64,000 nt of DNA from a bacterium (GCA_021786105.1 JAJYNW010000010.1:26301-90300), one strand, 5' to 3'. Shown: positions 3,830 to 17,282, counted from the first letter of the stretch. Program-made: numbers and translations. Notes: generated by a model from the sequence alone, not told the origin.

Positions 3830-4933
3830 ATGGTTCTTTCCGCCGTCATCTTTATTATTACGCTTCTGGTGTTAGTTTTAATCCATGAATTTGGCCATTT
3901 TTTGGTAGCCAAAAAATTTGGGATTAAAGTAGAAGAATTTGGTTTTGGGATTCCACCTAGGCTGTGGGGTAAAAAAATCGGCGAGACTTTATATTCTATC
4001 AACTGGCTGCCGTTTGGGGGGTTTGTCAAACTCCTGGGGGAAGATGAAGTAGATACAATCATGGTAAGCAAAAAAGACAAAAGCCGGGATTTCCGGGTTA
4101 AGTCGGTTTGGCAAAGGATTGCGGTGGTGGTGGCGGGAGTAGCAATGAACTTAATTTTGGCGTGGGTGCTTTTGTATATTGTGATTATAGCGCAAAATTT
4201 TAAAATTATTTATCCGACTTTAGAACCGGCAGTTTATATAGCGCAAGTAGAAAATAATTTTCCCGCCCAAAAAGCCGGTGTCCAGCCGGGAGAAAAGCTG
4301 GAGGCGGTTGATAACCAAAAAGTTTCAGATATTGATACTGCCAGGAAGCTGATTAAATCCAAAGACGAAAAGCCCGTGACTTTGACATTAGCTGACAGCG
4401 ATGGCAGAAACCCGCGAAAAATAAGCGTTACTCCGCAAAAGCAGCCCAATGGGGATGTGCTAATCGGAGTGGTGTTTAGCCCAATTCCATTCAGGGAATA
4501 TCAAACTGTTCCTCAAAAACTTTTTTCCGGAATTACTTATTCTTGGGATTTAGTCAGGCTGACTTTTGCCGGCTTGGGCAGATTACTGCATGATTTGATT
4601 TATGGAAATTTTGGAGCAGCTTCTCAATCAGTTAGCGGGCCAGTTGGTCTGGCTGTTGTCACCAATGATATCTTATCTTCCGGCGGCCTGGCGACGGTAA
4701 TTCTGCCGTATCTTTGGTTTGTGGGGGTAATCTCTTTAACCTTGAGCGTATTTAATGTTTTACCGATTCCGGCTTTGGATGGAGGCAGGTTGTTGTTTTT
4801 GGTGATTGAGGCCGTGACCGGCAAAAAGGTAAAGGAAGATGTTGAAAAGAATGTGCACATGATAGGTTTTATTATCTTGCTTGCTTTGGCTGTATTGATT
4901 ACTTTTTCGGATATCCGCAAACTGCTTCCGTAG
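3830..4933 (+). CDS. rseP: RIP zinc metalloprotease (site-2 protease, RseP family)
   Basis: HEFGH zinc motif in TM1, a PDZ-like middle region and a C-terminal LDGG motif. Confidence 0.85.
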   Translation: MVLSAVIFIITLLVLVLIHEFGHFLVAKKFGIKVEEFGFGIPPRLWGKKIGETLYSINWLPFGGFVKLLGEDEVDTIMVSKKDKSRDFRVKSVWQRIAVVVAGVAMNLILAWVLLYIVIIAQNFKIIYPTLEPAVYIAQVENNFPAQKAGVQPGEKLEAVDNQKVSDIDTARKLIKSKDEKPVTLTLADSDGRNPRKISVTPQKQPNGDVLIGVVFSPIPFREYQTVPQKLFSGITYSWDLVRLTFAGLGRLLHDLIYGNFGAASQSVSGPVGLAVVTNDILSSGGLATVILPYLWFVGVISLTLSVFNVLPIPALDGGRLLFLVIEAVTGKKVKEDVEKNVHMIGFIILLALAVLITFSDIRKLLP

Positions 4934-4941
4934 TCAACCAT

Positions 4942-5259
4942 ATGATAGCTGAATATGAATTAAGGAAACTATCTAATTCTAGGAGCATTTTTGCAGAAGG
5001 ACTTAAGAGGACAGAAGATCGTTATGGTTTTGAAGCTCCTGTAACAAAACTTGCTACTAGGTTGTGGGATAAGTGCGGATTATTACAACTACCGCAAGGA
5101 TATATAGAAAAAAAATCAGAAATTTGTGAAGTGATTGCCAAATCTTTTGTTGTGACACATTTCAGTATACCAGCTGTAACTTTAGATATTGCCCTTAACC
5201 TTTCTAGGTATATCCTCTGCACAACAGAGATAGCTTGGGAAAGAATACAGCAAAAATAG
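4942..5259 (+). CDS. hypothetical protein
   Basis: 105 aa ORF with no recognizable motifs. Codon usage (AGG/AGA/CTA-rich) is atypical for the neighbourhood. Confidence 0.35.
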   Translation: MIAEYELRKLSNSRSIFAEGLKRTEDRYGFEAPVTKLATRLWDKCGLLQLPQGYIEKKSEICEVIAKSFVVTHFSIPAVTLDIALNLSRYILCTTEIAWERIQQK

Positions 5260-5288
5260 TTAATTTACTACCCCGGATTGTTCCGTAA

Positions 5289-5317
5289 TTTAAAATCACC
5301 CCGATCTCCGCTATAAT
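5289..5317 (+). promoter_or_regulatory. candidate sigma70-type promoter for proS (-35 TTTAAA, 17 nt spacer, -10 TATAAT)
   Basis: The hexamers were read directly. A GAGGAGG SD follows 4 nt after the -10 and the ATG is at 5332. Confidence 0.3.
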
Positions 5318-5331
5318 GAAGAGGAGGTAAT

Positions 5332-6555
5332 ATGAAATATTCAAAACTTTTTCCGAAAACTATAAAACAGGTTCCAATTGGAGCTGAATCAGTAAATCAC
5401 CAGCTGTTGGTTCGTGCCGGATTTATCCATCAGGAAATGGCCGGGGTTTATACCTATTTGCCTTTGGGTTGGAGAGTAATCGAGAAAATCTCCAATATTG
5501 TGAGGGAGGAGATGAATAAAGTTAACGGTCAGGAAATACTGATGCCGGTTTTGCACCCCGGCGAAAATTGGAAGAAAACCGGCAGATTTGATAGCTTTGA
5601 TGTTTTGTTTAAGTTAAAGGGTGCAGGAGATAAAGATTTAGTGCTTGGGCCTACTCATGAAGAAATTATTTATCCTTTGCTTGCTGAGTATGTAAATTCA
5701 TATAAAGATTTACCGCTTCATTTATATCAGATCCAGACCAAATTTCGTAATGAGCCAAGAGCGAAGGCTGGGCTACTTCGTACCAGGGAATTTATTATGA
5801 AGGATTTGTATGCTTTTCATGAAAGCGATGAAGATAGGGATGAATATTATAAAATTGTTAGAGAGGCTTACTTGAGGATTTTTAAGAAATTAGAATTGCC
5901 TGTACTGATAACTAAAGCCTCGGGAGGAACTTTTTCTGATCTTTCGGAAGAATTTCAGGTAGTTACTCCTTCCGGCGAAGATACCATATTAATTTGCAGC
6001 AAATGTGATGTTGTAATTAACAAAGAAATTGCCGGAAAGGATTGTTCGGAATGCGGCGGGGTTATAAAAGAAGAAAAAGCTATTGAGGTGGGGAACATTT
6101 TCCCGCTTAAACGGGCTTATGCAGAAGTTTTTAACTTAAGTTTTACGGATAAAAAAGGAGAAAAGAAAATTGTTTCGGCAGGATGTTACGGTTTGGGGAT
6201 TTCCCGGGTAATGGGAGCTATTGTGGAAGTATCTCACGATGATAAGGGGATGATTTGGCCGGAAAGTGTGGCTCCGTTCCGGGTTCATTTGGTGGGTTTG
6301 GATTTGGAAGATAAAAGCGTAATGGAAATGGCAGAGAAGGTTCATAAATTGCTGGAGGCGGAAGGAATTGAGGTGTTGTTTGATGATCGGGTAGGAGTTT
6401 CAGCCGGGGCCAAATTTGCTGATGCGGACCTAATTGGCATTCCTTATAGAATTGTGATTTCTAAAAAGACCACAGAGGATAAATTGGAAGTTAAAAAGAG
6501 AAGCGAAAAAGAGACAAAATTTATGTCTTTTAAACAATTTCTGGAAATTGTTTAA
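5332..6555 (+). CDS. proS: prolyl-tRNA synthetase, bacterial type, minimal (no INS editing domain)
   Basis: Class II motifs (QIQTKFRNE, GCYGLGISR) and a C-terminal anticodon-binding domain. A CxxC-x13-CxxC zinc knuckle sits where the INS domain would be. Confidence 0.85.
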   Translation: MKYSKLFPKTIKQVPIGAESVNHQLLVRAGFIHQEMAGVYTYLPLGWRVIEKISNIVREEMNKVNGQEILMPVLHPGENWKKTGRFDSFDVLFKLKGAGDKDLVLGPTHEEIIYPLLAEYVNSYKDLPLHLYQIQTKFRNEPRAKAGLLRTREFIMKDLYAFHESDEDRDEYYKIVREAYLRIFKKLELPVLITKASGGTFSDLSEEFQVVTPSGEDTILICSKCDVVINKEIAGKDCSECGGVIKEEKAIEVGNIFPLKRAYAEVFNLSFTDKKGEKKIVSAGCYGLGISRVMGAIVEVSHDDKGMIWPESVAPFRVHLVGLDLEDKSVMEMAEKVHKLLEAEGIEVLFDDRVGVSAGAKFADADLIGIPYRIVISKKTTEDKLEVKKRSEKETKFMSFKQFLEIV

Positions 6556-9382: not shown

Positions 9383-9796
9383 ATGGTAAATATCATTGTA
9401 AATTCTGACCCCAGATATAATATTAATAAAGACAGCATTAAGACTGCAGTATCAGAGATTTTATCCCAGCATCGTATCTCTGGTAAGGTTGAATTAGGGA
9501 TTAATATTGTGGGTGACCGGAAAATGCATGAACTCAATCGTAAGTATCGCGGTTTAGACTCTACCACCAATATTTTATCTTTTGCCTTAGAAGATTCTAA
9601 TCCGGCCAACTTGCAACATATTCCCAGGATTGGTTTTGTGGCAGCACCTGATAAGTGGTTGAGGTTGGGTGATATTATCATTTCCTACCCACAAGCTTTG
9701 GAAGATGCTTCAATGGACGGAATTTCGGTTGATGAGGAGATTAGGGATTTAGTAGAGCATGGGTTAAACCATTTATTAGGGATTCACCACAATTAA
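9383..9796 (+). CDS. ybeY: rRNA maturation endoribonuclease YbeY
   Basis: C-terminal HGxLHLLGxxH zinc motif (VEHGLNHLLGIHH). The upstream 54 nt of the track ORF is encoded by the repeat element and was trimmed. Confidence 0.85.
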   Translation: MVNIIVNSDPRYNINKDSIKTAVSEILSQHRISGKVELGINIVGDRKMHELNRKYRGLDSTTNILSFALEDSNPANLQHIPRIGFVAAPDKWLRLGDIIISYPQALEDASMDGISVDEEIRDLVEHGLNHLLGIHHN

Positions 9797-11349
9797 TGGA
9801 AAACATTGCCTATTACTTAAAGTATCGTCCCCAAACTCTTGGCGAACTGGTAGGCCAGACATCGGTAAAAAAAACTCTCCTGTCATCTTTTCAAAATAAT
9901 AAGCTGTCTCACGCGTATCTTTTTGTCGGTCCCCGCGGTACCGGCAAAACCTCAACCGCCAGAATCTTGGCCAAGATGGTCAATTGTTCCGCAGAGCAAA
10001 ATATTCCTTGCAATAAGTGCGAAGCGTGTATATCTATAACAGACGGATCAAACCTTGATCTTATTGAAATTGATGCTGCTTCCAATCGCGGTATCGAAGA
10101 TATCAGATTGCTGCGCGACAAAATCAAACTCGCCCCCACTAGTGCTAAAAAGAAAGTTTACATCATTGACGAAGTGCATATGCTAACCACGGAGGCTTTT
10201 AATGCGCTTTTGAAGACTTTGGAAGAACCTCCTAAACATGCTTTATTTATTCTGGCAACTACGGAGGGTAATAAAGTTCCCCCAACAATTTTGTCCCGGG
10301 TGCAGAAGTTAGATTTTAAGTTGGCCACCTCAGAAGAATTGTTAGAAGCTTTGAAAAAAATTGTCACGGTGGAAAAAATTGATATTGACGAAGAGGCTTT
10401 AAAAAACCTGGTTAAAAAATCAAACGGTTCTTTTAGGGATGGAGTGAAATTATTGGACCAAGTTTCAATGGGAGAGAAAATTACTGTAAAGCTCGTTGAT
10501 GAAAGCTTAAAATCTTCCCAATTTGAAAATATTTTGGAGTTAGTGCAAAGCCTAAAAAACAAAAATGCCGAGGCCTGTTTATTGAGCTTATCGGGGCAAA
10601 TAGAAAATGGGGTTGATGTTAAAGAGCTAATGCTGTCTTTGATGGATATTTTGAGGAATTTAGTTTTCATAAAAAATGGATTAGGTGAACAATTAGTAAA
10701 AGTCCATTTAACGGAAGATAAATATAAACAACTGGAAGAGCTGGCGGAAAATTTTAGCCCTGATAATCTAATCAGAGCTTTAGATATTCTGCAAATCAGT
10801 CTTGAGAAAATGAAATTTGCTCCAATACCGTCATTGCCGCTGGAATTGGCAATTGTGGAAATCTGTGGGTTAGTAAATCAGCAGGTCAGAGCATCAGCAA
10901 GTCAGCAAGTCAGTGAACCAATGGATTCTGCCGATACTCCGATCTCATCTGAAACGCAGGTAGATGATCAGATTCCGGAAGCGCCTGTCTCAGGTAATGC
11001 TGATATTGCCAAACTGAAGGAAAAATGGACTTTTGTATTAGAGACAATAAGACCCTTTAATTTTTCTCTGGAAGCATTGTTAAGATCCATTAATATTGCA
11101 GAATGCACTGAAAGTTCAGTGATCATGGAAGTGCCATACTCGTTTCATCAAAGAATTTTAGAAGCTCCAAAAAATAGGGATTTGGTGGAAGGAATTCTGT
11201 CGGATATTTTAGGAAGAAGCATTAGGATCTCTGCCGTATTGGGAAGCCGGCCGGCCAAAAAAGATGATGTTGCCAATATTGAGGTAGCCCAGGATGATGA
11301 AATTATTAGAGCAGCTGCTGAAATCTTTAACTCTGATTCTGTTAACTAA
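9796..11349 (+). CDS. dnaX: DNA polymerase III subunit gamma/tau
   Basis: Walker A (GPRGTGKTS), a zinc module (CNKCEAC) and an SRC motif. Its start overlaps the ybeY stop (TAATG). Confidence 0.9.
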   Translation: MENIAYYLKYRPQTLGELVGQTSVKKTLLSSFQNNKLSHAYLFVGPRGTGKTSTARILAKMVNCSAEQNIPCNKCEACISITDGSNLDLIEIDAASNRGIEDIRLLRDKIKLAPTSAKKKVYIIDEVHMLTTEAFNALLKTLEEPPKHALFILATTEGNKVPPTILSRVQKLDFKLATSEELLEALKKIVTVEKIDIDEEALKNLVKKSNGSFRDGVKLLDQVSMGEKITVKLVDESLKSSQFENILELVQSLKNKNAEACLLSLSGQIENGVDVKELMLSLMDILRNLVFIKNGLGEQLVKVHLTEDKYKQLEELAENFSPDNLIRALDILQISLEKMKFAPIPSLPLELAIVEICGLVNQQVRASASQQVSEPMDSADTPISSETQVDDQIPEAPVSGNADIAKLKEKWTFVLETIRPFNFSLEALLRSINIAECTESSVIMEVPYSFHQRILEAPKNRDLVEGILSDILGRSIRISAVLGSRPAKKDDVANIEVAQDDEIIRAAAEIFNSDSVN

Positions 11350-11740
11350 ATCTCGGCATCTATACCATCAAAACAAGGAAGTATTCAGAATAAATATCCC
11401 TAGTATCTAGGGCTAAAAAATTGACATTCTTGAAGCTAGATTTCTTAAATTTACGTCCTTACTATTTATAATATAACTATGATTTCTGTTTTTTCTTTCA
11501 TGTTGATATATAATAAAAACAATGAAAAGAAGACTAGTAGGGAAAGATAAAAAATCGAAAGAGTTAATAGAATTTCTAAAAAAAGGTGGCAGGGAAAGAT
11601 CAAAAGAAGATTTTAAAAAATTACTTAAAAAGGCTGTGCAGTCAATAAAGAAATAACTATAGAGATATTCAAATCTTGTAATTTGGTATTTTTATTGCAA
11701 TAATAAATTAATAATTACAAAATAATCAATTTATAGATAA

Positions 11741-12268
11741 ATGGAAAAAACAGACAAAATCATTTTAGGTTTAAGAGGAAATGAAATTTTTGCGTATACA
11801 TTATTTGTAGTTGTATTTGGTGGACTGCCAATAATAGGTGGTCTGATGTTTCTTCAACTTCCACAAGTCCAACTATTAGGATTAATTCTTTTAATTGTAG
11901 GTTTAGTTCTTACTGGATATTTTGTATTCCTTGTAATTCTGCAAAGCAAAAAAAGCGTTTCAATAGACAAAAAAATCTTAACATTGATGACTCCAAACTG
12001 GAATGGTTCCTGGATAAAAAAGACAGTAGATCTATCAAAAACAAAAAGCATTGGATTTGTAAAAACAACAAGCTTACTCTATATGAAAAACGCAATAATG
12101 CCAGTGGGTATTCAGCACTTGGCTTTTATTTACGAAGATCAAAGTATTAATCAACTACCTATAAACCAATTTAAAACCACAGATGTTAAGAAAATATTAA
12201 ACTTAATTCATCAGAATAGTCCTTCTATTGGATTTGCTCCAGAAATAACTACTTATTTGAATAGCTAA
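11741..12268 (+). CDS. hypothetical membrane protein (two N-terminal TM helices plus a bPH/YdbT-like soluble domain)
   Basis: 175 aa ORF in an AT-rich accessory region. Hydrophobic segments were read from the translation. Confidence 0.4.
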   Translation: MEKTDKIILGLRGNEIFAYTLFVVVFGGLPIIGGLMFLQLPQVQLLGLILLIVGLVLTGYFVFLVILQSKKSVSIDKKILTLMTPNWNGSWIKKTVDLSKTKSIGFVKTTSLLYMKNAIMPVGIQHLAFIYEDQSINQLPINQFKTTDVKKILNLIHQNSPSIGFAPEITTYLNS

Positions 12269-12325
12269 ATAGTAGATAAAAAGCGGGTTTAAATTGTTTT
12301 TAAAAGACAGGAGGTGAAAATTTGT

Positions 12326-12484
12326 ATGAATAACAACATCATAAAAGTGGGAGCAATTGTTTGCATAGTGACAGGATCAGGATTAGCCTTTTCAAATTTA
12401 AGTGGAAGCAATGATCATATCCCCCTACTGTACCATGGAGCGATAATTGCATTTGGTTTTTATATGCTACTAAAGAAAAATTAA
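12326..12484 (+). CDS. small hydrophobic protein (52 aa, 2 predicted TM)
   Basis: Strong SD AGGAGGTG 8 nt upstream of the ATG and a palindromic terminator downstream. Confidence 0.35.
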   Translation: MNNNIIKVGAIVCIVTGSGLAFSNLSGSNDHIPLLYHGAIIAFGFYMLLKKN

Positions 12485-12514
12485 AGTGTCAGATAAATTT
12501 ACCATCCTTAAAAA

Positions 12515-12550
12515 AGTACCTACGCGTAGGTACTAAAATTTGTTGTTTTT
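12515..12550. terminator. bidirectional rho-independent terminator candidate (perfect 20 nt palindrome AGTACCTACGCGTAGGTACT followed by a T-run)
   Basis: Palindrome read directly. A-rich upstream and T-rich downstream, lying between the convergent small ORF and the transposase. Confidence 0.5.
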
Positions 12551-12559
12551 GAGGCTGAA

Positions 12560-13620
12560 TTTGTTAAAAACACAGACTCTTTATTCTTATATAAATATAA
12601 GATGATGCAAACTAAGCAACTTTGACTTGAGAGATAACTTTTATATTAGCTATTTCACTTAGTAACTTTTCAAACATTTTATCCTGATATTTTCTGTTAT
12701 TGTATCTCCAACTATATTCATCAATATATGCCTGTAAGTATTTTTTAGATACAACTCTGTACACTCCATAAATACCTCGTTTTAGAATTGACCAAAGATT
12801 TTCAACATTCTGGGTATAAATATCACCAACTACATAAGTTTCTTTATGTTTTACAAAATCATGTTTATAACAGTGATATTTTAATTGGGTATATCCATAA
12901 TATTCATCAGTTATAACTCGGGCTTTTGCATCGACATGATTTTTAATCTGCTCAAGCAGTGTCCATTTGCCAGTATTGGGGATATGTTTTAAATATACTT
13001 TGTTGCCTCCTGTATCTGTCCCGTTTTTGTCTTGTTCATTTCTTTGCACCATTCCCATAACGACCTCTTTTGGTATTTCATTAAAGTTTGGTTTAAAAGC
13101 TCTATTTTTTCCTTTTCCTCCAATAAAAGTTTCATCTATTTCAACTGTGCCATCAAGTAGCTCACCATTACCACCTGAGCTTTCTGTACCAATCGTATTT
13201 ACCATAAGCATTCTTATTTGCTTAAACATTCTCCAGGCAGTTTTGTAGGTTACACCAAGCATCCGTTCTAATTGTTTTGCAGAAGTACCACTCCTGGTTT
13301 GGGTCATCAGATACATGGCAAAAAACCAAAGATCAAGTGGGGTTGTAGTTTTTTCAAAAATAGTTCCAGCAAGTGGATAAATGTGATGACCGCAATTATT
13401 GCAAGCGTAAGCAGTTCTTCCTTTAACAGTATAAAACTTTTCTTTTCCTTTGCATTTGGGACATTCCATTAAGTCGGAGAAACGAAGTCTTTTAATTACC
13501 TCAAGACACTGCTCATGAGTACCATATTCTTGTCTAAATTCTTTGAGGCTAAATTTCATAGGATAAACTTATCTTAGCATGAATCTTCCTTGTCGTCAAG
13601 GGATAAATGCCTAAATCTCC
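12560..13620 (-). mobile_element. IS1595-family insertion sequence (ISXO2-like); exact ends not resolved
   Basis: Single transposase ORF. A possible imperfect terminal repeat AGATAACTTTTAT (12632) versus AGATAAGTTTAT (rc of 13561-13572) is visible. The element sits immediately upstream of glyA. Confidence 0.5.
12612..13559 (-). CDS. IS1595 family transposase (ISXO2-like DDE)
   Basis: N-terminal zinc ribbon (CPKC...CNNCGHH) and a DDE transposase-like core, 315 aa. Confidence 0.85.
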   Translation of the reverse strand: MKFSLKEFRQEYGTHEQCLEVIKRLRFSDLMECPKCKGKEKFYTVKGRTAYACNNCGHHIYPLAGTIFEKTTTPLDLWFFAMYLMTQTRSGTSAKQLERMLGVTYKTAWRMFKQIRMLMVNTIGTESSGGNGELLDGTVEIDETFIGGKGKNRAFKPNFNEIPKEVVMGMVQRNEQDKNGTDTGGNKVYLKHIPNTGKWTLLEQIKNHVDAKARVITDEYYGYTQLKYHCYKHDFVKHKETYVVGDIYTQNVENLWSILKRGIYGVYRVVSKKYLQAYIDEYSWRYNNRKYQDKMFEKLLSEIANIKVISQVKVA

Positions 13621-13649
13621 CCTTGACAACCGGCTTCTTGTGGTTAACA

Positions 13650-14957
13650 ATGGTTTCTTCCATGTCATCAAAGGTTTTTAAATTAATTGCAGAAGAAGCC
13701 CACCGTCAAAAGTATGGTTTGGAAATGATCCCTTCAGAAAATTATGTTTCCAAAGATGTTTTAAGAGCTTTGGGGTCTATCCTGACTAATAAATATTCAG
13801 AAGGTTTTCCCGGCAGACGTTATTATGGCGGCAATGAAGTGATTGATAAAATTGAAAATTATGCTGTGGATTTGGCAAAGGAATTGTTCGGTGTGCCGGC
13901 CGCGTTTGTCCAATCTTATTCCGGTTCCCCGGCCAATCAGGCTATCACGATGGCAGTTTGTGAGCCGGGTGAGATAGTGATGGGGTTGGCTTTGTCTTCC
14001 GGCGGACATTTAACCCACGGTGCTAAATTAAATTTTTCCAGTATTTTCTTTAAAGCAGTTAATTATACTGTCGGTGAAGACTGGAAAATAAATTTTGGAG
14101 AACTGGAAGCTTTGGCCAAAAAACATAAACCAAAAATGATTTGGGTGGGAACGACTGCATATCCTTTTAAGCTGGATTATAAGAAATTCAGAAAAATTGC
14201 CGATGAAGTAAATGCCACACTGGTTGCAGATATTTCCCACATTACCGGGTTAATTATCGGCGGTGTTCACGAGTCACCAGTACCTTACGTTGACATCATT
14301 ATGACAACTACCCATAAAACTTTGCGGGGTCCGAGGGGAGCCATGATTTTGGTAACTGACCGGGGATTAAAAAGGGATCCGGAAATCAAAGGAAAAATTG
14401 AAAGAGCGATAATTCCCGGGATCCAGGGCGGGCCGCATAATCATCAAACAGCCGCTATTGCAGTAAGTTTAGAAGAAGCTTTAAAACCTTCGTTTAAAAA
14501 ATATGCTGCCCAAGTTGCTAAAAATGCGGCAGTGCTGGCCAGAGAATTGGGAACAGTTTCAGAAACTCATTTGATACTTTTGACTTTAACTGAATATGGT
14601 TATGGTATGGGTTATCAGGCCCAATATGCATTGGAGGAAGCGGGGATTACAGTTAATAAAAATACGATCCCCGGAGAACCAGCTTCTCCTTTTTATCCTT
14701 CAGGTATCCGCTTGGGAACGCCGGCTTTAACAACCAGAGGGATGAAGGAAAAAGATATGGTTAAGGTGGCCAGTTGGATTAAGATGGTTTTGGAAGAAAT
14801 TAGGAGTTTGGATTTGCCGGAAGAACAGGAAAAAAGAAAAGATTTCTTAAAAGAAGTTAGAGTTAAATTGCACCAAAATAAAAATTTGAAAAAAATCAGA
14901 AAAGAAGTGGAGAAATTTGCTGGAAAATTTCCTATGCCAGGTGTAGATGATATTTAG
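13650..14957 (+). CDS. glyA: serine hydroxymethyltransferase
   Basis: SHMT motifs (IPSENYVS, LTNKYSEGFPGRRYYGG, TTTHKTLRGPRG). The track ORF start at 13590 is a spurious extension into the IS flank. Confidence 0.9.
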   Translation: MVSSMSSKVFKLIAEEAHRQKYGLEMIPSENYVSKDVLRALGSILTNKYSEGFPGRRYYGGNEVIDKIENYAVDLAKELFGVPAAFVQSYSGSPANQAITMAVCEPGEIVMGLALSSGGHLTHGAKLNFSSIFFKAVNYTVGEDWKINFGELEALAKKHKPKMIWVGTTAYPFKLDYKKFRKIADEVNATLVADISHITGLIIGGVHESPVPYVDIIMTTTHKTLRGPRGAMILVTDRGLKRDPEIKGKIERAIIPGIQGGPHNHQTAAIAVSLEEALKPSFKKYAAQVAKNAAVLARELGTVSETHLILLTLTEYGYGMGYQAQYALEEAGITVNKNTIPGEPASPFYPSGIRLGTPALTTRGMKEKDMVKVASWIKMVLEEIRSLDLPEEQEKRKDFLKEVRVKLHQNKNLKKIRKEVEKFAGKFPMPGVDDI

Positions 14958-15011: not shown

Positions 15012-15857
15012 ATGAAAGTATCTGGTAAAGCAGTTGCAGCAGCCATCTCCAAAAAGCTCCAAAAAAAAATTGAAAAATTAACAGTAAAACCAACCCTCGC
15101 CATTATTTTGGTCGGAGAAGATCCTTCCTCCCGGATGTATGTTGATTTTAAAATTAAGGCGGCCAAACGAATTGGGGTGGGGATAAAATTTTATGAATTT
15201 TCCGAAGATCAATACAGAGAAACTTTAAAAACCATCCAAAAGTTAAATGCCGATAAACAAGTTCACGGGATAATAATTCAATACCCAATTTATAAAAGTT
15301 GGGACTTTGATGAGCTGTTTTCAGCAGTTGATCCAGAAAAAGATGTAGATGGCTTTCATGAAAACTCTCCTTTTGGCGGGGCTACCGCCATTGGAGTTTG
15401 GGAAATGCTGACTGCTTTTGCGCTGATTGAGGGATTTAAAAAAACAGAGGAATTTTTGAAAGATAAAAAGATTGTGGTTTTAGGTAGAGGCAAAACAGCC
15501 GGCGGCCCGATTATAAAACTTTTGGGAAGTCATGGTTTGCAGGTAACGGTGGTAGCTCACGATACTGAAAATCCGCAAAGCGTAATCAAAAGCGGAGATG
15601 TGATAATCTCGGCAACCGGGGTGAAAAATATTGTTAATAAAACTAATCTTAAAAACGGCAGCTTTGTGATTGGAGTTGGGGTGGGTAAAGAAATAGTGGA
15701 CGGGCAGTCCAAAGTTTATGGAGATATTAATGAAGAAGATGTAGAAAAAATTGCCAAATTATATTGCCCGACCATTGGTGGGATTGGGCCTTTGACAATT
15801 GTGAGTTTGCTCGAGAATACGATAGAGGCAAGTATCAGACAACAAAAAAAAGATTAA
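15012..15857 (+). CDS. folD: bifunctional methylene-THF dehydrogenase/cyclohydrolase
   Basis: 281 aa with FolD-like N-terminal catalytic and C-terminal NAD(P)-binding domains. Confidence 0.9.
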   Translation: MKVSGKAVAAAISKKLQKKIEKLTVKPTLAIILVGEDPSSRMYVDFKIKAAKRIGVGIKFYEFSEDQYRETLKTIQKLNADKQVHGIIIQYPIYKSWDFDELFSAVDPEKDVDGFHENSPFGGATAIGVWEMLTAFALIEGFKKTEEFLKDKKIVVLGRGKTAGGPIIKLLGSHGLQVTVVAHDTENPQSVIKSGDVIISATGVKNIVNKTNLKNGSFVIGVGVGKEIVDGQSKVYGDINEEDVEKIAKLYCPTIGGIGPLTIVSLLENTIEASIRQQKKD

Positions 15858-16450
15858 TACTCTTTTCTTCCTTCCAAAGCTCTGGATAAGGTTGTTTCAT
15901 CAGCATATTCCAAATCAGACCCCACCGGCAAGCCTCGGGCAATCCGGGTAACTTTTACTCCCAAAGGAGAAATCAATCTTTGGATATACATGGCAGTGGC
16001 TTCTCCTTCCATAGTCGGATTGGTGGCCAAAATTATTTCTTTAACTTTGCCATTTTTGAGTCTTGGTAAAAGTTCCCTAATATGAATTTCTGAAGGACCG
16101 ATATTTTCCAAGGGGGAAATTACTCCATGCAAGACATGGTAAAGCCCTTTAAAGTTGGCTTTCTCCAAAGCCAAAACATCCAAAGGATTTTCTACTACTG
16201 TAATTACGGTTTGGTCGCGGTTTTGGTCGGAACAAATTTGGCAGGGATCTTCTTCTCCAATATTAAAACAAATTGAACAGATTTTGGTTTTTTCTTTCAT
16301 GCCTAATGCGGCCTCAGCCAAAGCTTTGGTTTCAGTATCCGGCGCATGCAGAAGGTAATAGGTGAGTCTTTGGGCGGTTTTTGGCCCAATGCCGGGGAGC
16401 CTTTCAAATGCCTCGATTAAATTTTGTACTGACTTGGGGATTTGTGCCAT
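15854..16450 (-). CDS. recR: recombination protein RecR
   Basis: HhH (LPGIGPKTAQR), a C4 zinc finger (CSIC...CQIC) and a Toprim domain. Confidence 0.9.
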   Translation of the reverse strand: MAQIPKSVQNLIEAFERLPGIGPKTAQRLTYYLLHAPDTETKALAEAALGMKEKTKICSICFNIGEEDPCQICSDQNRDQTVITVVENPLDVLALEKANFKGLYHVLHGVISPLENIGPSEIHIRELLPRLKNGKVKEIILATNPTMEGEATAMYIQRLISPLGVKVTRIARGLPVGSDLEYADETTLSRALEGRKEY

Positions 16451-16516
16451 GGTGGGTGAATTTTACCATTTATAGGAGACCATTGCGAGCGCTAGAGGAT
16501 TGAATTGGTATAAGTT

Positions 16517-16795
16517 TTACATTCCGGGGATGCCTAAACCGCCCATCATACCTTTCATCTCGTCAGCTGCTACTTTTTGGGATTGTTTTAAGGCTTCGTT
16601 TACTGCTTCGGTAATTTTGTCAAAATTTTGTTCACCGGAAATGGAAATTATCTTTTGGTCAGCAGTCATGATTACTGTTACGCCTTTATGTTCCACTGTA
16701 ATCTTAATCCCGGCCAGCTTTTTTTGCATTTCCAGGGCCTGATCCCGCATTTTCTTGAGGTCTCCAAGTTGTTTTAAATTATCCATTAAACCCAT
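16517..16795 (-). CDS. ybaB: nucleoid-associated protein YbaB/EbfC
   Basis: 92 aa YbaB-like product immediately upstream of recR in the same orientation, a conserved pair. Confidence 0.85.
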   Translation of the reverse strand: MGLMDNLKQLGDLKKMRDQALEMQKKLAGIKITVEHKGVTVIMTADQKIISISGEQNFDKITEAVNEALKQSQKVAADEMKGMMGGLGIPGM

Positions 16796-16853: not shown

Positions 16854-17282
16854 ATGAATAGCGGAGTTAAGCAATTTGCCGGGGAGGTAAAACAGGCCAC
16901 GGGGGAAGTGGCTCAAGATGTGAAAGACCAGTTTGGGCAGGCGTTGGAACAGGGTGCTCAATCAATTGCCGGCAGCCAACTTACCCCGCAACAAATTCAG
17001 CAAAAACAACAGGAAGACCAAAAAAAAGAGTTAGAAAGACAAAGACAGCTGGTTTATACCAGGAAGTGGCTTAAGGATTTGGAAATGTCTCAGCAAAAAG
17101 CCAGGATGGAAAATAAACAGAAAGAACAGCAAAGATTGCAAGGCCAGCAGCGAGAGGTGCAGGAGAAAAAGATGGCGGAAATCCAAAAAACACAGGCCAC
17201 CAAAAGACCTGGTGGTACTACCCAAGATGCCATTCAAAGATCTCAGGCAGAACTAAAAGTTGGAAAAGGAGTCGGAGGGTAG
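16854..17282 (+). CDS. hypothetical Q/K/E-rich coiled-coil protein
   Basis: 142 aa of low-complexity Q-rich sequence with no family assignment. Confidence 0.4.
   Translation: MNSGVKQFAGEVKQATGEVAQDVKDQFGQALEQGAQSIAGSQLTPQQIQQKQQEDQKKELERQRQLVYTRKWLKDLEMSQQKARMENKQKEQQRLQGQQREVQEKKMAEIQKTQATKRPGGTTQDAIQRSQAELKVGKGVGG

Follow-up and report, generated by a model that had tools for sequence, protein, structure and literature searches.

A 64,000-nt stretch of bacterial DNA (GCA_021786105.1, JAJYNW010000010.1:26301-90300; hereafter the window, with positions counted from its first letter) carries between the genes dnaX and glyA an insertion sequence (IS) of the IS1595 family which, to judge from its sequence, is one passenger-carrying element of 2,257 bp (11355-13611), a so-called transporter IS. 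We are highly confident in this explanation as a whole, namely that a single transporter IS entered the dnaX-glyA spacer at the edge of a -35 promoter hexamer, in a sequence that resembles part of its own inverted repeat (IR) and through which its transposase may have recognised the site. More broadly, and with somewhat more conviction than doubt, we propose that an undescribed clade of IS1595 transporter ISs in ultra-small bacteria of the candidate phyla radiation (CPR) picks its sites by reading a -35 hexamer that mimics its own IR, with integration exactly 11 nt upstream of that hexamer, the clade being further marked by a second core gene for a protein of ~45 amino acids (aa) and by variable cargo (restriction-modification, toxin-antitoxin and membrane proteins). 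A single insertion of this kind is by itself ordinary; what is new is the clade-wide promoter-edge targeting together with the conserved second gene. The account builds on the boundaries of the element, its target duplication, an architecture common to the family, a bias in target choice and purifying selection on the small protein. A first-pass annotation of the same DNA had described an accessory insertion plus a separate, intact IS, which together split dnaX from ybaB-recR. All of the features it listed were found in place (dnaX, an AT-rich stretch, three open reading frames (ORFs), a Shine-Dalgarno sequence, a palindrome, a transposase gene, glyA and ybaB-recR); its observation is confirmed and its interpretation partly supported.

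The longest inverted repeat of the region pairs 11350-11381, just past the dnaX stop codon, with 13585-13616, just before glyA, and spans more than the transposase gene alone. The exact limits of the element are GGCATC... (11355) and ...ATGCC (13611), with tips GGCATCTATACC... and GGCATTTATCCC... and imperfect terminal IRs. The transposase-distal repeat (IRR, GGCATCTATACCATCAAAACAAGGAAG, 11355-11381, plus strand) fits the clade consensus GGcACtTATcCCcTcAagaCAaGg and is complementary to the transposase-proximal repeat (IRL, GGCATTTATCCCTTGACGACAAGGAAG, 13585-13611, minus strand; clade consensus GGCAcTTATCCCTTGACAACAaGtA) at 18 of the first 24 nt. The mate of the transposase-proximal repeat thus lies at 11355, and what had been taken for an islet and an IS is one element. 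Both tips are abutted by copies of an 8-bp target site duplication (TSD), TAAATCTC, at 11347-11354 and 13612-13619, which match each other perfectly. When position pairs with an 8/8 direct repeat were considered, the observed 18/24 compared with a maximum of 15 in 200 shuffles, and the analytic expectation for such IR and TSD ends, corrected for the whole search space, is ~1e-4. Because the left copy of TAAATCTC contains the dnaX stop codon (TAA, 11347-11349), dnaX is unchanged by the insertion. The element occupies the entire dnaX-glyA interval of ~2.26 kb; removing it in silico leaves a spacer of ~35-47 nt, with the inferred empty-site junction order dnaX-TAAATCTC-CCCTTGACA-glyA. On this account the element would have transposed into a spacer of roughly 35 nt and made a second copy of TAAATCTC; the dnaX stop would have been kept in the left copy, and the right one would have come to sit 3 nt upstream of the -35 hexamer of glyA. 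The AT-rich insertion of ~2.3 kb after dnaX, as first annotated, is evident in a GC content of 0.22-0.32 over 11300-12950 vs ~0.40 in the flanks (10-18 points lower), which we read as foreign composition and which supports a horizontally acquired insertion.

The transposase is complete, as had been annotated: its gene (12612-13559, minus strand) is intact, encodes 315 aa and matches PF12762 (E 2e-34, profile positions 2-153 of 153), PF12760 (E 9e-10) and NF033547 (E 8e-53), and the zinc-ribbon residues C33, C36, C53 and C56 as well as the acidic residues D142, D218 and E253 are invariant among 10 transposase homologues. More than 7,600 homologues of it occur in public metagenomes at E <= 1e-10. 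The element shares with the IS1595 family a DDE_Tnp_IS1595 catalytic domain, an N-terminal zinc ribbon, which only the IS1016 group lacks, an 8-bp TSD and terminal IRs beginning with GG. An 8-bp duplication is typical of that family, as is a single transposase gene (PMC8101967). Here the transposase is not the only ORF, as three more lie between the IRs, and the element is therefore placed among the transporter IS members of the family, not outside it. Passenger genes between IRs blur the boundary between IS and transposon, and the category of transporter IS was first described for the IS1595 family (PMC3129680). Two of the three extra ORFs, orf175 and orf52, are passengers, and the cargo differs among the window element and its two closest relatives (L088 and L089). 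The term 'transporter IS' is said to come from Siguier, Gagnevin and Chandler in 2009, for passenger-carrying IS1595 members. The ends GGCATTTAT and GGCATCTAT fit ggnnatTAT, the ISfinder end consensus of the ISNwi1 group, to which the element would probably belong.

A scan of metagenome contigs and further look-ups yielded a clade of 21 elements, including that of the window, whose transposases are 46-100% identical to the window's, and which can also be denoted as the GGCAYTTATCCCTTGAC clade. All 21 are bounded by GGCAcTTATCCCTTGACAAC / GGcACtTATcCCcTcAagaC repeats, and they range from 1,609 to 4,233 bp in length (median 2,188 bp). Perfect 8-bp TSDs flank 19 relatives, L113 has 7/8, and the L088 contig includes just one flank; every TSD sequence differs, hence the insertions are independent. 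The nearest transposases, those of L088 (82% identical) and L089 (73%), are found on short contigs whose layout is that of the window element. L089 has its IRs at 34-58 and 2445-2469 and the TSD GTCAGTTT, whereas the L088 contig starts within the IRL, with the IRR ending at 2229. These two and the window share the transposase, its 3' untranslated region (UTR), a small gene and the IRs, and the cargo between is wholly different. One clade member (L192, 4455-6222) is located in a phage-like region (L192-L200), with RusA upstream and a P22-type portal downstream, and immediately precedes the TTGACA-N16-TATAAT promoter of a small RHH-type gene. A more distant clade of 26 elements, from soil and peat metagenomes, has transposases 40-47% identical, the IR type GGTAATTATCCCTTGAC and an 8-bp TSD, and a copy on a Sulfitobacter plasmid has the same IR type and 8-bp TSD. 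Transposases in plasmid and phage collections are at most 40% identical and are annotated just as 'IS1595 family'.

The clade also bears on whether two events could have produced the region, a simple IS of ~1.1 kb (~12500-13620) lying beside an independently acquired AT-rich islet with three small ORFs. The transposase and its 3' UTR taken alone would equal the typical size of an IS1595 element, and inspection reveals a weak IRR-like stretch, AAGGATGGTAAAT, past the terminator hairpin at ~12495-12510, with 13/24 matches to the IRR. We nevertheless hold such a history to be very improbable: near 12500-12610 there is neither an 8-bp duplication nor a repeat pairing with the IRL at >=15/24, the IRR with its perfect TSD sits at 11355, the 44-aa gene of the supposed islet is a core gene of the family, found inside the IRs in 20/21 clade elements, and all related elements examined are longer than 1.1 kb.

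Just past the right TSD copy lies the native glyA promoter, CCC-TTGACA-N17-AACAAT (13620-13651, plus strand; 10/12 consensus matches). Its TTGACA (13623-13628), 17-nt spacer and AACAAT are all in native DNA outside the IS. No other site in the region matches a promoter as well, and its -35 starts 12 nt outside the IS tip. The IS flank does lie within ~60 nt of the glyA start, as first reported (39 nt to ATG 13650, 51 nt to ATG 13662), and it had been suggested from this that glyA is transcribed from an IS-borne or hybrid promoter. No such promoter is needed, because the native one is intact beyond the TSD; the sole promoter-like site in the adjacent IS end (TTGACG-17-TAAGAT, 13599-13571) faces inward to the transposase.

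The position of this promoter recurs across the clade. We surveyed the 41 available flanks of the 21 elements, counting offsets outward from the IS tip, and found an exact TTGACA at positions 12-17 outside one tip in 10/41 flanks, belonging to 10 different elements (the window, L088, L092, L096, L099, L101, L115, L165, L175 and L192). A hexamer within one mismatch of TTGACA occurs at offset 12 in 13/41 flanks. With backgrounds per position of 0.0006 (exact) and 0.007 (one mismatch), the binomial P values are 1e-21 and 2e-18, respectively, and no other offset has more than one such match. In the better flank of each of the 21 elements the hexamer bases were counted as T17 T18 G19 A17 C13 A16, position -1 being C in 10 elements and position -2 being T in 13, and position counts for the opposite flanks of the 21 elements gave no signal. 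Most of the offset-12 hexamers are followed by a TATAAT-like box 16-18 nt on, and then by a co-directional ORF; 10 elements have the promoter beside the IRL and 6 have it beside the IRR. The target, N8-YYC-TTGACA, is a copy of positions 10-18 of the element's own IRL (GGCAYTTAT-CCC-TTGACA). A transposase module that reads the IR would, we infer, also dock on a -35-like motif in target DNA, and docking would fix the register, with strand transfer 3 and 11 nt upstream of the -35. The element would thereby land in non-coding DNA and leave the core promoter intact; outside the IS, a crude ORF map gives a coding density of ~0.95.

The flanking TTGACA might instead be a remnant of the IRLs of older copies, as in IR targeting of the IS30 type, or might arise from a general preference for intergenic sequence rich in AT. 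In the window, agreement between the flank CCCTTGACAAC and the IRL consensus extends over 11 nt, beyond the hexamer itself, and CCCTTGAC occurs only three times in 64 kb, two of these being back to back across the right IS junction. Older IRLs should also have left their outer 9 nt, GGCAYTTAT, which are absent, the flanks sharing only (Y)(Y)C-TTGACA; furthermore, in most flanks a -10-like hexamer follows at 16-18 nt and then a host ORF in the same direction, for example glyA, and an AT preference would not give a spike at a single offset. We therefore judge both variants improbable. A weightier alternative, possible though less probable than direct reading of the IR mimic, is that promoter targeting is real but that the transposase is tethered to promoter-bound sigma or RNA polymerase. 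The targets look like functional promoters with -10 boxes, as such tethering would have it, and the distant clade has TTGACA in its IRL yet no offset-12 target bias; for this reason IR mimicry alone does not explain the targeting. However, the register is fixed to a single base and a further C is conserved at -1, which mirrors the IR (CCC-TTGACA) and would fit direct reading better. Within the distant clade, TTGAC starts at the last duplicated base in four members (L142, L147, L150 and L205), 4 nt nearer the IS than in the CPR clade, which hints at a related, shifted target register; L205 is the cultured alphaproteobacterial copy on the Sulfitobacter plasmid (NZ_CP083567.1, element 3941-5610 of the locus).

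Fixed-distance insertion is known from TnGBS, ISLre2 and ISKra4, which insert 15-17 bp upstream of the -35 boxes of sigma-A/sigma-70 promoters and so avoid gene disruption (PMC3942029). The window clade likewise inserts at a fixed short distance upstream of a -35 box. Its behaviour matches theirs but its family membership does not, since the window transposase matches IS1595 models only, being of the IS1595/Merlin type, whereas TnGBS, ISLre2 and ISKra4 use Mutator-like (p-MULT) DDE transposases of an unrelated superfamily. The distance from tip to -35 is 11 nt in the window clade (the 8-bp TSD plus 3) vs 15-17 nt in these elements, both orientations are found in the window clade (10 IRL-side, 6 IRR-side) whereas most TnGBS and ISLre2 insertions are oriented, and, set against all three, the window clade has a target motif that copies its own IR. 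Elements of the IS30 type target IR-like sequences, and the target of the window clade also resembles its own terminal repeat; unlike those elements, it shares with that repeat only a 7-9-nt sub-motif matching the -35, and host promoters rather than resident IS ends are its targets. Within the IS1595 family the clade stands apart by a conserved convergent gene for a ~45-aa basic two-helix protein, by its CPR/Patescibacteria hosts and by a strong sequence-specific target preference. We know of no report of such a preference in IS1595, and a literature search found no report of -35 promoter targeting for IS1595 and no paper linking IS1595 with CPR or Patescibacteria.

Several points weigh against the account given here. 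Five of the 21 elements have no clear TTGACA-like hexamer at offset 12, and the distant clade, as noted above, lacks the bias despite the motif in its IRL. The IRs are imperfect (75%), although the asymmetry between IRL and IRR is kept across the clade. Neither blastn nor tblastn found a second copy or fragment of the element in the window, and an identical transposase is present on 10 public contigs, every one at the same locus, so that the mobility of the window copy is no more than probable. The sole analogue of an empty site, the nearest genome available (L008), is distant (dnaX 50% identical), with unalignable spacers, and look-ups of the exact transposase, orf175 and dnaX proteins found no same-species empty site, only the occupied locus.

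Such observations could also suit an ancestral arrangement without any mobile insertion, the transposase being a relic that is decaying or has been domesticated. The element is single-copy, five contigs (L001-L004 and L203, from 4 samples) show 100% identity to the window in every part that they share with 11301-13700, with three spanning all 2,400 nt, and no strain with an empty site was found. Against this stand the perfect TSD, the family-typical IRs, the intact catalytic triad and zinc ribbon, the absence of the insert from L008 and a GC content 10-18 points below that of the flanks, and we find the ancestral arrangement hardly credible. The first-pass annotation had itself considered a relic without intact terminal repeats, and it is because these repeats (18/24) and the perfect 8-bp duplication are intact that the element is not a relic. 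It is probably still mobile, and current activity of the window copy may be supposed from its intact parts. One of the contigs with an identical transposase belongs to a metagenome-assembled genome annotated 'Patescibacteria group bacterium' (GCA_023487645.1). Two of the five compared contigs, L003 and L203, both from sample SRR10252151, break inside orf175 at ~12059 and 12267 of the window, which could reflect low coverage or strain variation. A compound (composite) transposon was rejected, given the single transposase gene and the lack of a second IS copy or fragment in the window.

In the proposed layout of the element, an inward promoter and the DDE transposase gene at the IRL end would be followed by a conserved 3' UTR ending in a hairpin terminator; at the IRR end, an opposite-strand operon would begin with the gene for a conserved 44-aa basic two-helix protein and continue with two lineage-specific membrane-protein passengers. 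The predicted transposase promoter, TTGACG-17-TAAGAT (13571-13599, minus strand), has its -35 within the IRL, and the IRLs of the clade keep TTGACA at IR positions 13-18, with a -10 ~17 nt further. With only ~11 nt between the -10 and the ATG, and with a Shine-Dalgarno sequence absent, the transposase mRNA is probably leaderless or nearly so.

Past the transposase stop, alignment with L088 and L089 reveals ~115 conserved nt comprising an AT hairpin, a TTAGCCTCAAA motif, a GC hairpin with changed sequence but kept pairing, and a T-run; past the terminator homology stops, and it returns at the stop codon of the small gene. In the window an AT-rich palindrome, CTTATATAAATATAAG (12586-12601; a self-complementary match), lies just past the transposase stop and forms a hairpin conserved in L088 and L089. 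A perfect 20-nt palindrome, AGTACCTACGCGTAGGTACT (12515-12534, minus strand), is terminator-like on both strands, with a T-run following on the minus strand. L088 and L089 have at its position a hairpin of different sequence, then a T-run, and their cargo starts directly after. The first-pass annotation had assigned this palindromic terminator to the accessory DNA; it does look like a terminator, and we read it as the intrinsic terminator of the transposase gene and a conserved part of the IS, because hairpin pairing and T-run are kept in relatives and the cargo sits between the terminator and the small gene. It likely serves also as a barrier for the convergent cargo operon. Integron-like cassette boundaries at these hairpin modules were considered and found no supporting evidence, the modules being best read as transposase 3' UTR and terminator, and an Rfam search of 11200-13800 gave no match. 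A short GC hairpin, CCCTAGTATCTAGGG (11398-11412), lies within the IRR-proximal leader and is a terminator-like site on the minus strand.

The window contains three copies of a 14-nt motif, AAATYYAGCYTCAA, where 0.04 would be expected in 64 kb, a pattern that was defined post hoc. All three copies are inside the IS and on the transposase-sense (minus) strand: the first (13543-13556) coincides with transposase codons 2-6, the second (12549-12562) is in the transposase 3' UTR and the third (11430-11443) belongs to a promoter-like spacer, 76-89 nt inward of the IRR. A role as operator or as subterminal binding site is possible. Similar copies are found 62-98 nt inside the IRR in L088, L092 and L106.

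The gene next to the IRR (11522-11656, plus strand), annotated at first as a KR-rich ORF, encodes a small basic protein of 44 aa with the motif KELIEFLKKGGRE...DF..LLK.A and is convergent to the transposase. Across the clade the protein is ~45 aa long, with the motif KGGREG..K.DF..LLKRA, and a hidden Markov model (HMM) built from 32 homologues detects its gene in 20/21 elements. The gene is convergent to the transposase in every element carrying it but L108, where it is co-directional. In some elements it overlaps the 3' end of the transposase gene; in others, the window element among them, it adjoins the IRR. The latter position is also that of the 50-54-aa homologues in L088 (1738-1890) and L089 (2219-2383; 54 aa), which are convergent to the transposase; homologues are present in L100, L101, L184 and others, and the distant clade gives weak HMM matches at the same place. 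With pN/pS values of 0.27-0.70, at near-saturated synonymous sites, the ORF is a real coding gene under purifying selection. At least 151 homologues are found in databases, all 'hypothetical' and none with a Pfam domain, and those from named organisms belong to Microgenomates-type CPR bacteria. AlphaFold2 (AF2) predicts a lysine-rich tail and helices 10-20 and 27-43, with an invariant GGRE loop between them (pLDDT 77), and a Foldseek comparison of this model with the PDB returned no match. As a tentative best guess, the protein could be a nucleic-acid-binding regulator or cofactor of transposition.

The first passenger, orf175 (11741-12268, plus strand), encodes 175 aa and had been described as a membrane and bPH-like protein. 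Its membrane character is supported by a single-sequence AF2 model, in which helices 13-38 and 41-70 are confident and of membrane type and form an N-terminal two-helix hairpin; most of the C-terminal domain has pLDDT <50 (residues 71-77, 85-94 and 100-147). The bPH-like label is unconfirmed, as searches of Pfam, NCBIfam and PHROGs gave nothing above threshold, the best match being EbsA at E 0.012. Among 5.8 and 1.84 billion sequences the only homologue was one fragment, 83% identical. That fragment (L204 787-1307, 79% nucleotide identity over 521 nt) stands in a non-IS context beside an XRE-type helix-turn-helix gene, is similar to orf175 in the coding sequence only, has its N-terminal frame apparently broken by a TGA and comes from a sample that also contains the strain of the window. 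The second passenger, orf52 (12326-12484, plus strand), agrees with its first description as a membrane peptide with a strong Shine-Dalgarno sequence: AGGAGGTG (12310-12317) lies 8 nt upstream of ATG 12326, the 52-aa peptide is hydrophobic and it is called as a gene on public contigs, and a profile search gave only a sub-threshold LiaF-TM match. Cargo elsewhere in the clade includes an N6-methylase/specificity-subunit fusion, a DUF433/DUF5615 pair, a SocA-Panacea antitoxin, DUF3467 proteins, a Bro-N protein and many ORFans. In one element (L102, 124-3354) the cargo contains a nested IS3-family element (943-1990; HTH_Tnp_1 and rve ORFs), together with the DUF433/DUF5615 pair and a DUF3467 gene.

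Around the element, dnaX (9796-11349, plus strand) has the Pfam domains DNA_pol3_delta2, gamma3 and DnaX_C. glyA starts at ATG 13650 or 13662, of which comparison with L008 favours the latter, and is followed by folD, recR (15854-16450, minus strand) and ybaB (16517-16795, minus strand). L008 was obtained by a contig scan with dnaX, in which the other matches were from distant phyla, and its proteins are 50% (dnaX), 63% (glyA), 79% (recR) and 78% (ybaB) identical to those of the window. It has the order YqeY-YbeY-dnaX-glyA, with no insert and a dnaX-glyA gap of ~30-60 nt, and ybaB and recR lie ~3.3-4.1 kb downstream on the dnaX strand. The location of glyA between dnaX and ybaB-recR is therefore ancestral and older than the IS, so that the IS did not split this neighbourhood as had been proposed. 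We take the reversed orientation of ybaB-recR in the window for a separate inversion, unrelated to the IS; a role of the IS in it was considered and dropped, as there is no second copy for recombination. The spans compared for the inversion were 15854-16795 in the window and 12999-14341 in L008. The folD of L008 shares just 26% identity with that of the window, and between glyA and folD L008 has an additional ORF of 198 aa on the minus strand. L008 (CAZZEB010000006.1) is labelled 'uncultured Gammaproteobacteria bacterium', and its gene order and the identities of 50-79% suggest that this label is wrong. Between ybaB and cysS the window has a 142-aa Q/K/E-rich low-complexity ORF (16854-17282) without a Pfam match, in a stretch of extreme AT skew (0.42-0.50); the ORF is conserved on same-strain public contigs.

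For the annotation of this genome, the region is to be corrected to one mobile element instead of an island and an IS, with glyA keeping its own promoter and the separation of dnaX from ybaB-recR predating the IS. The window element is one member of a widespread, undescribed IS1595 group in CPR bacteria, whose cargo, from a methylase-specificity fusion and toxin-antitoxin pairs to ORFan membrane proteins, makes it a small-scale vehicle of accessory genes in hosts with few other known mobile elements. If the proposed target choice is true, it would be the first sequence-defined promoter targeting in the IS1595/Merlin superfamily, convergent with that of TnGBS and ISLre2, and, because the target mimics the element's own IR, it would offer a simple, testable model of how a DDE transposase selects its target. 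It would also explain how ISs persist in streamlined genomes that are ~95% coding, where ~95% of random insertions would strike genes.

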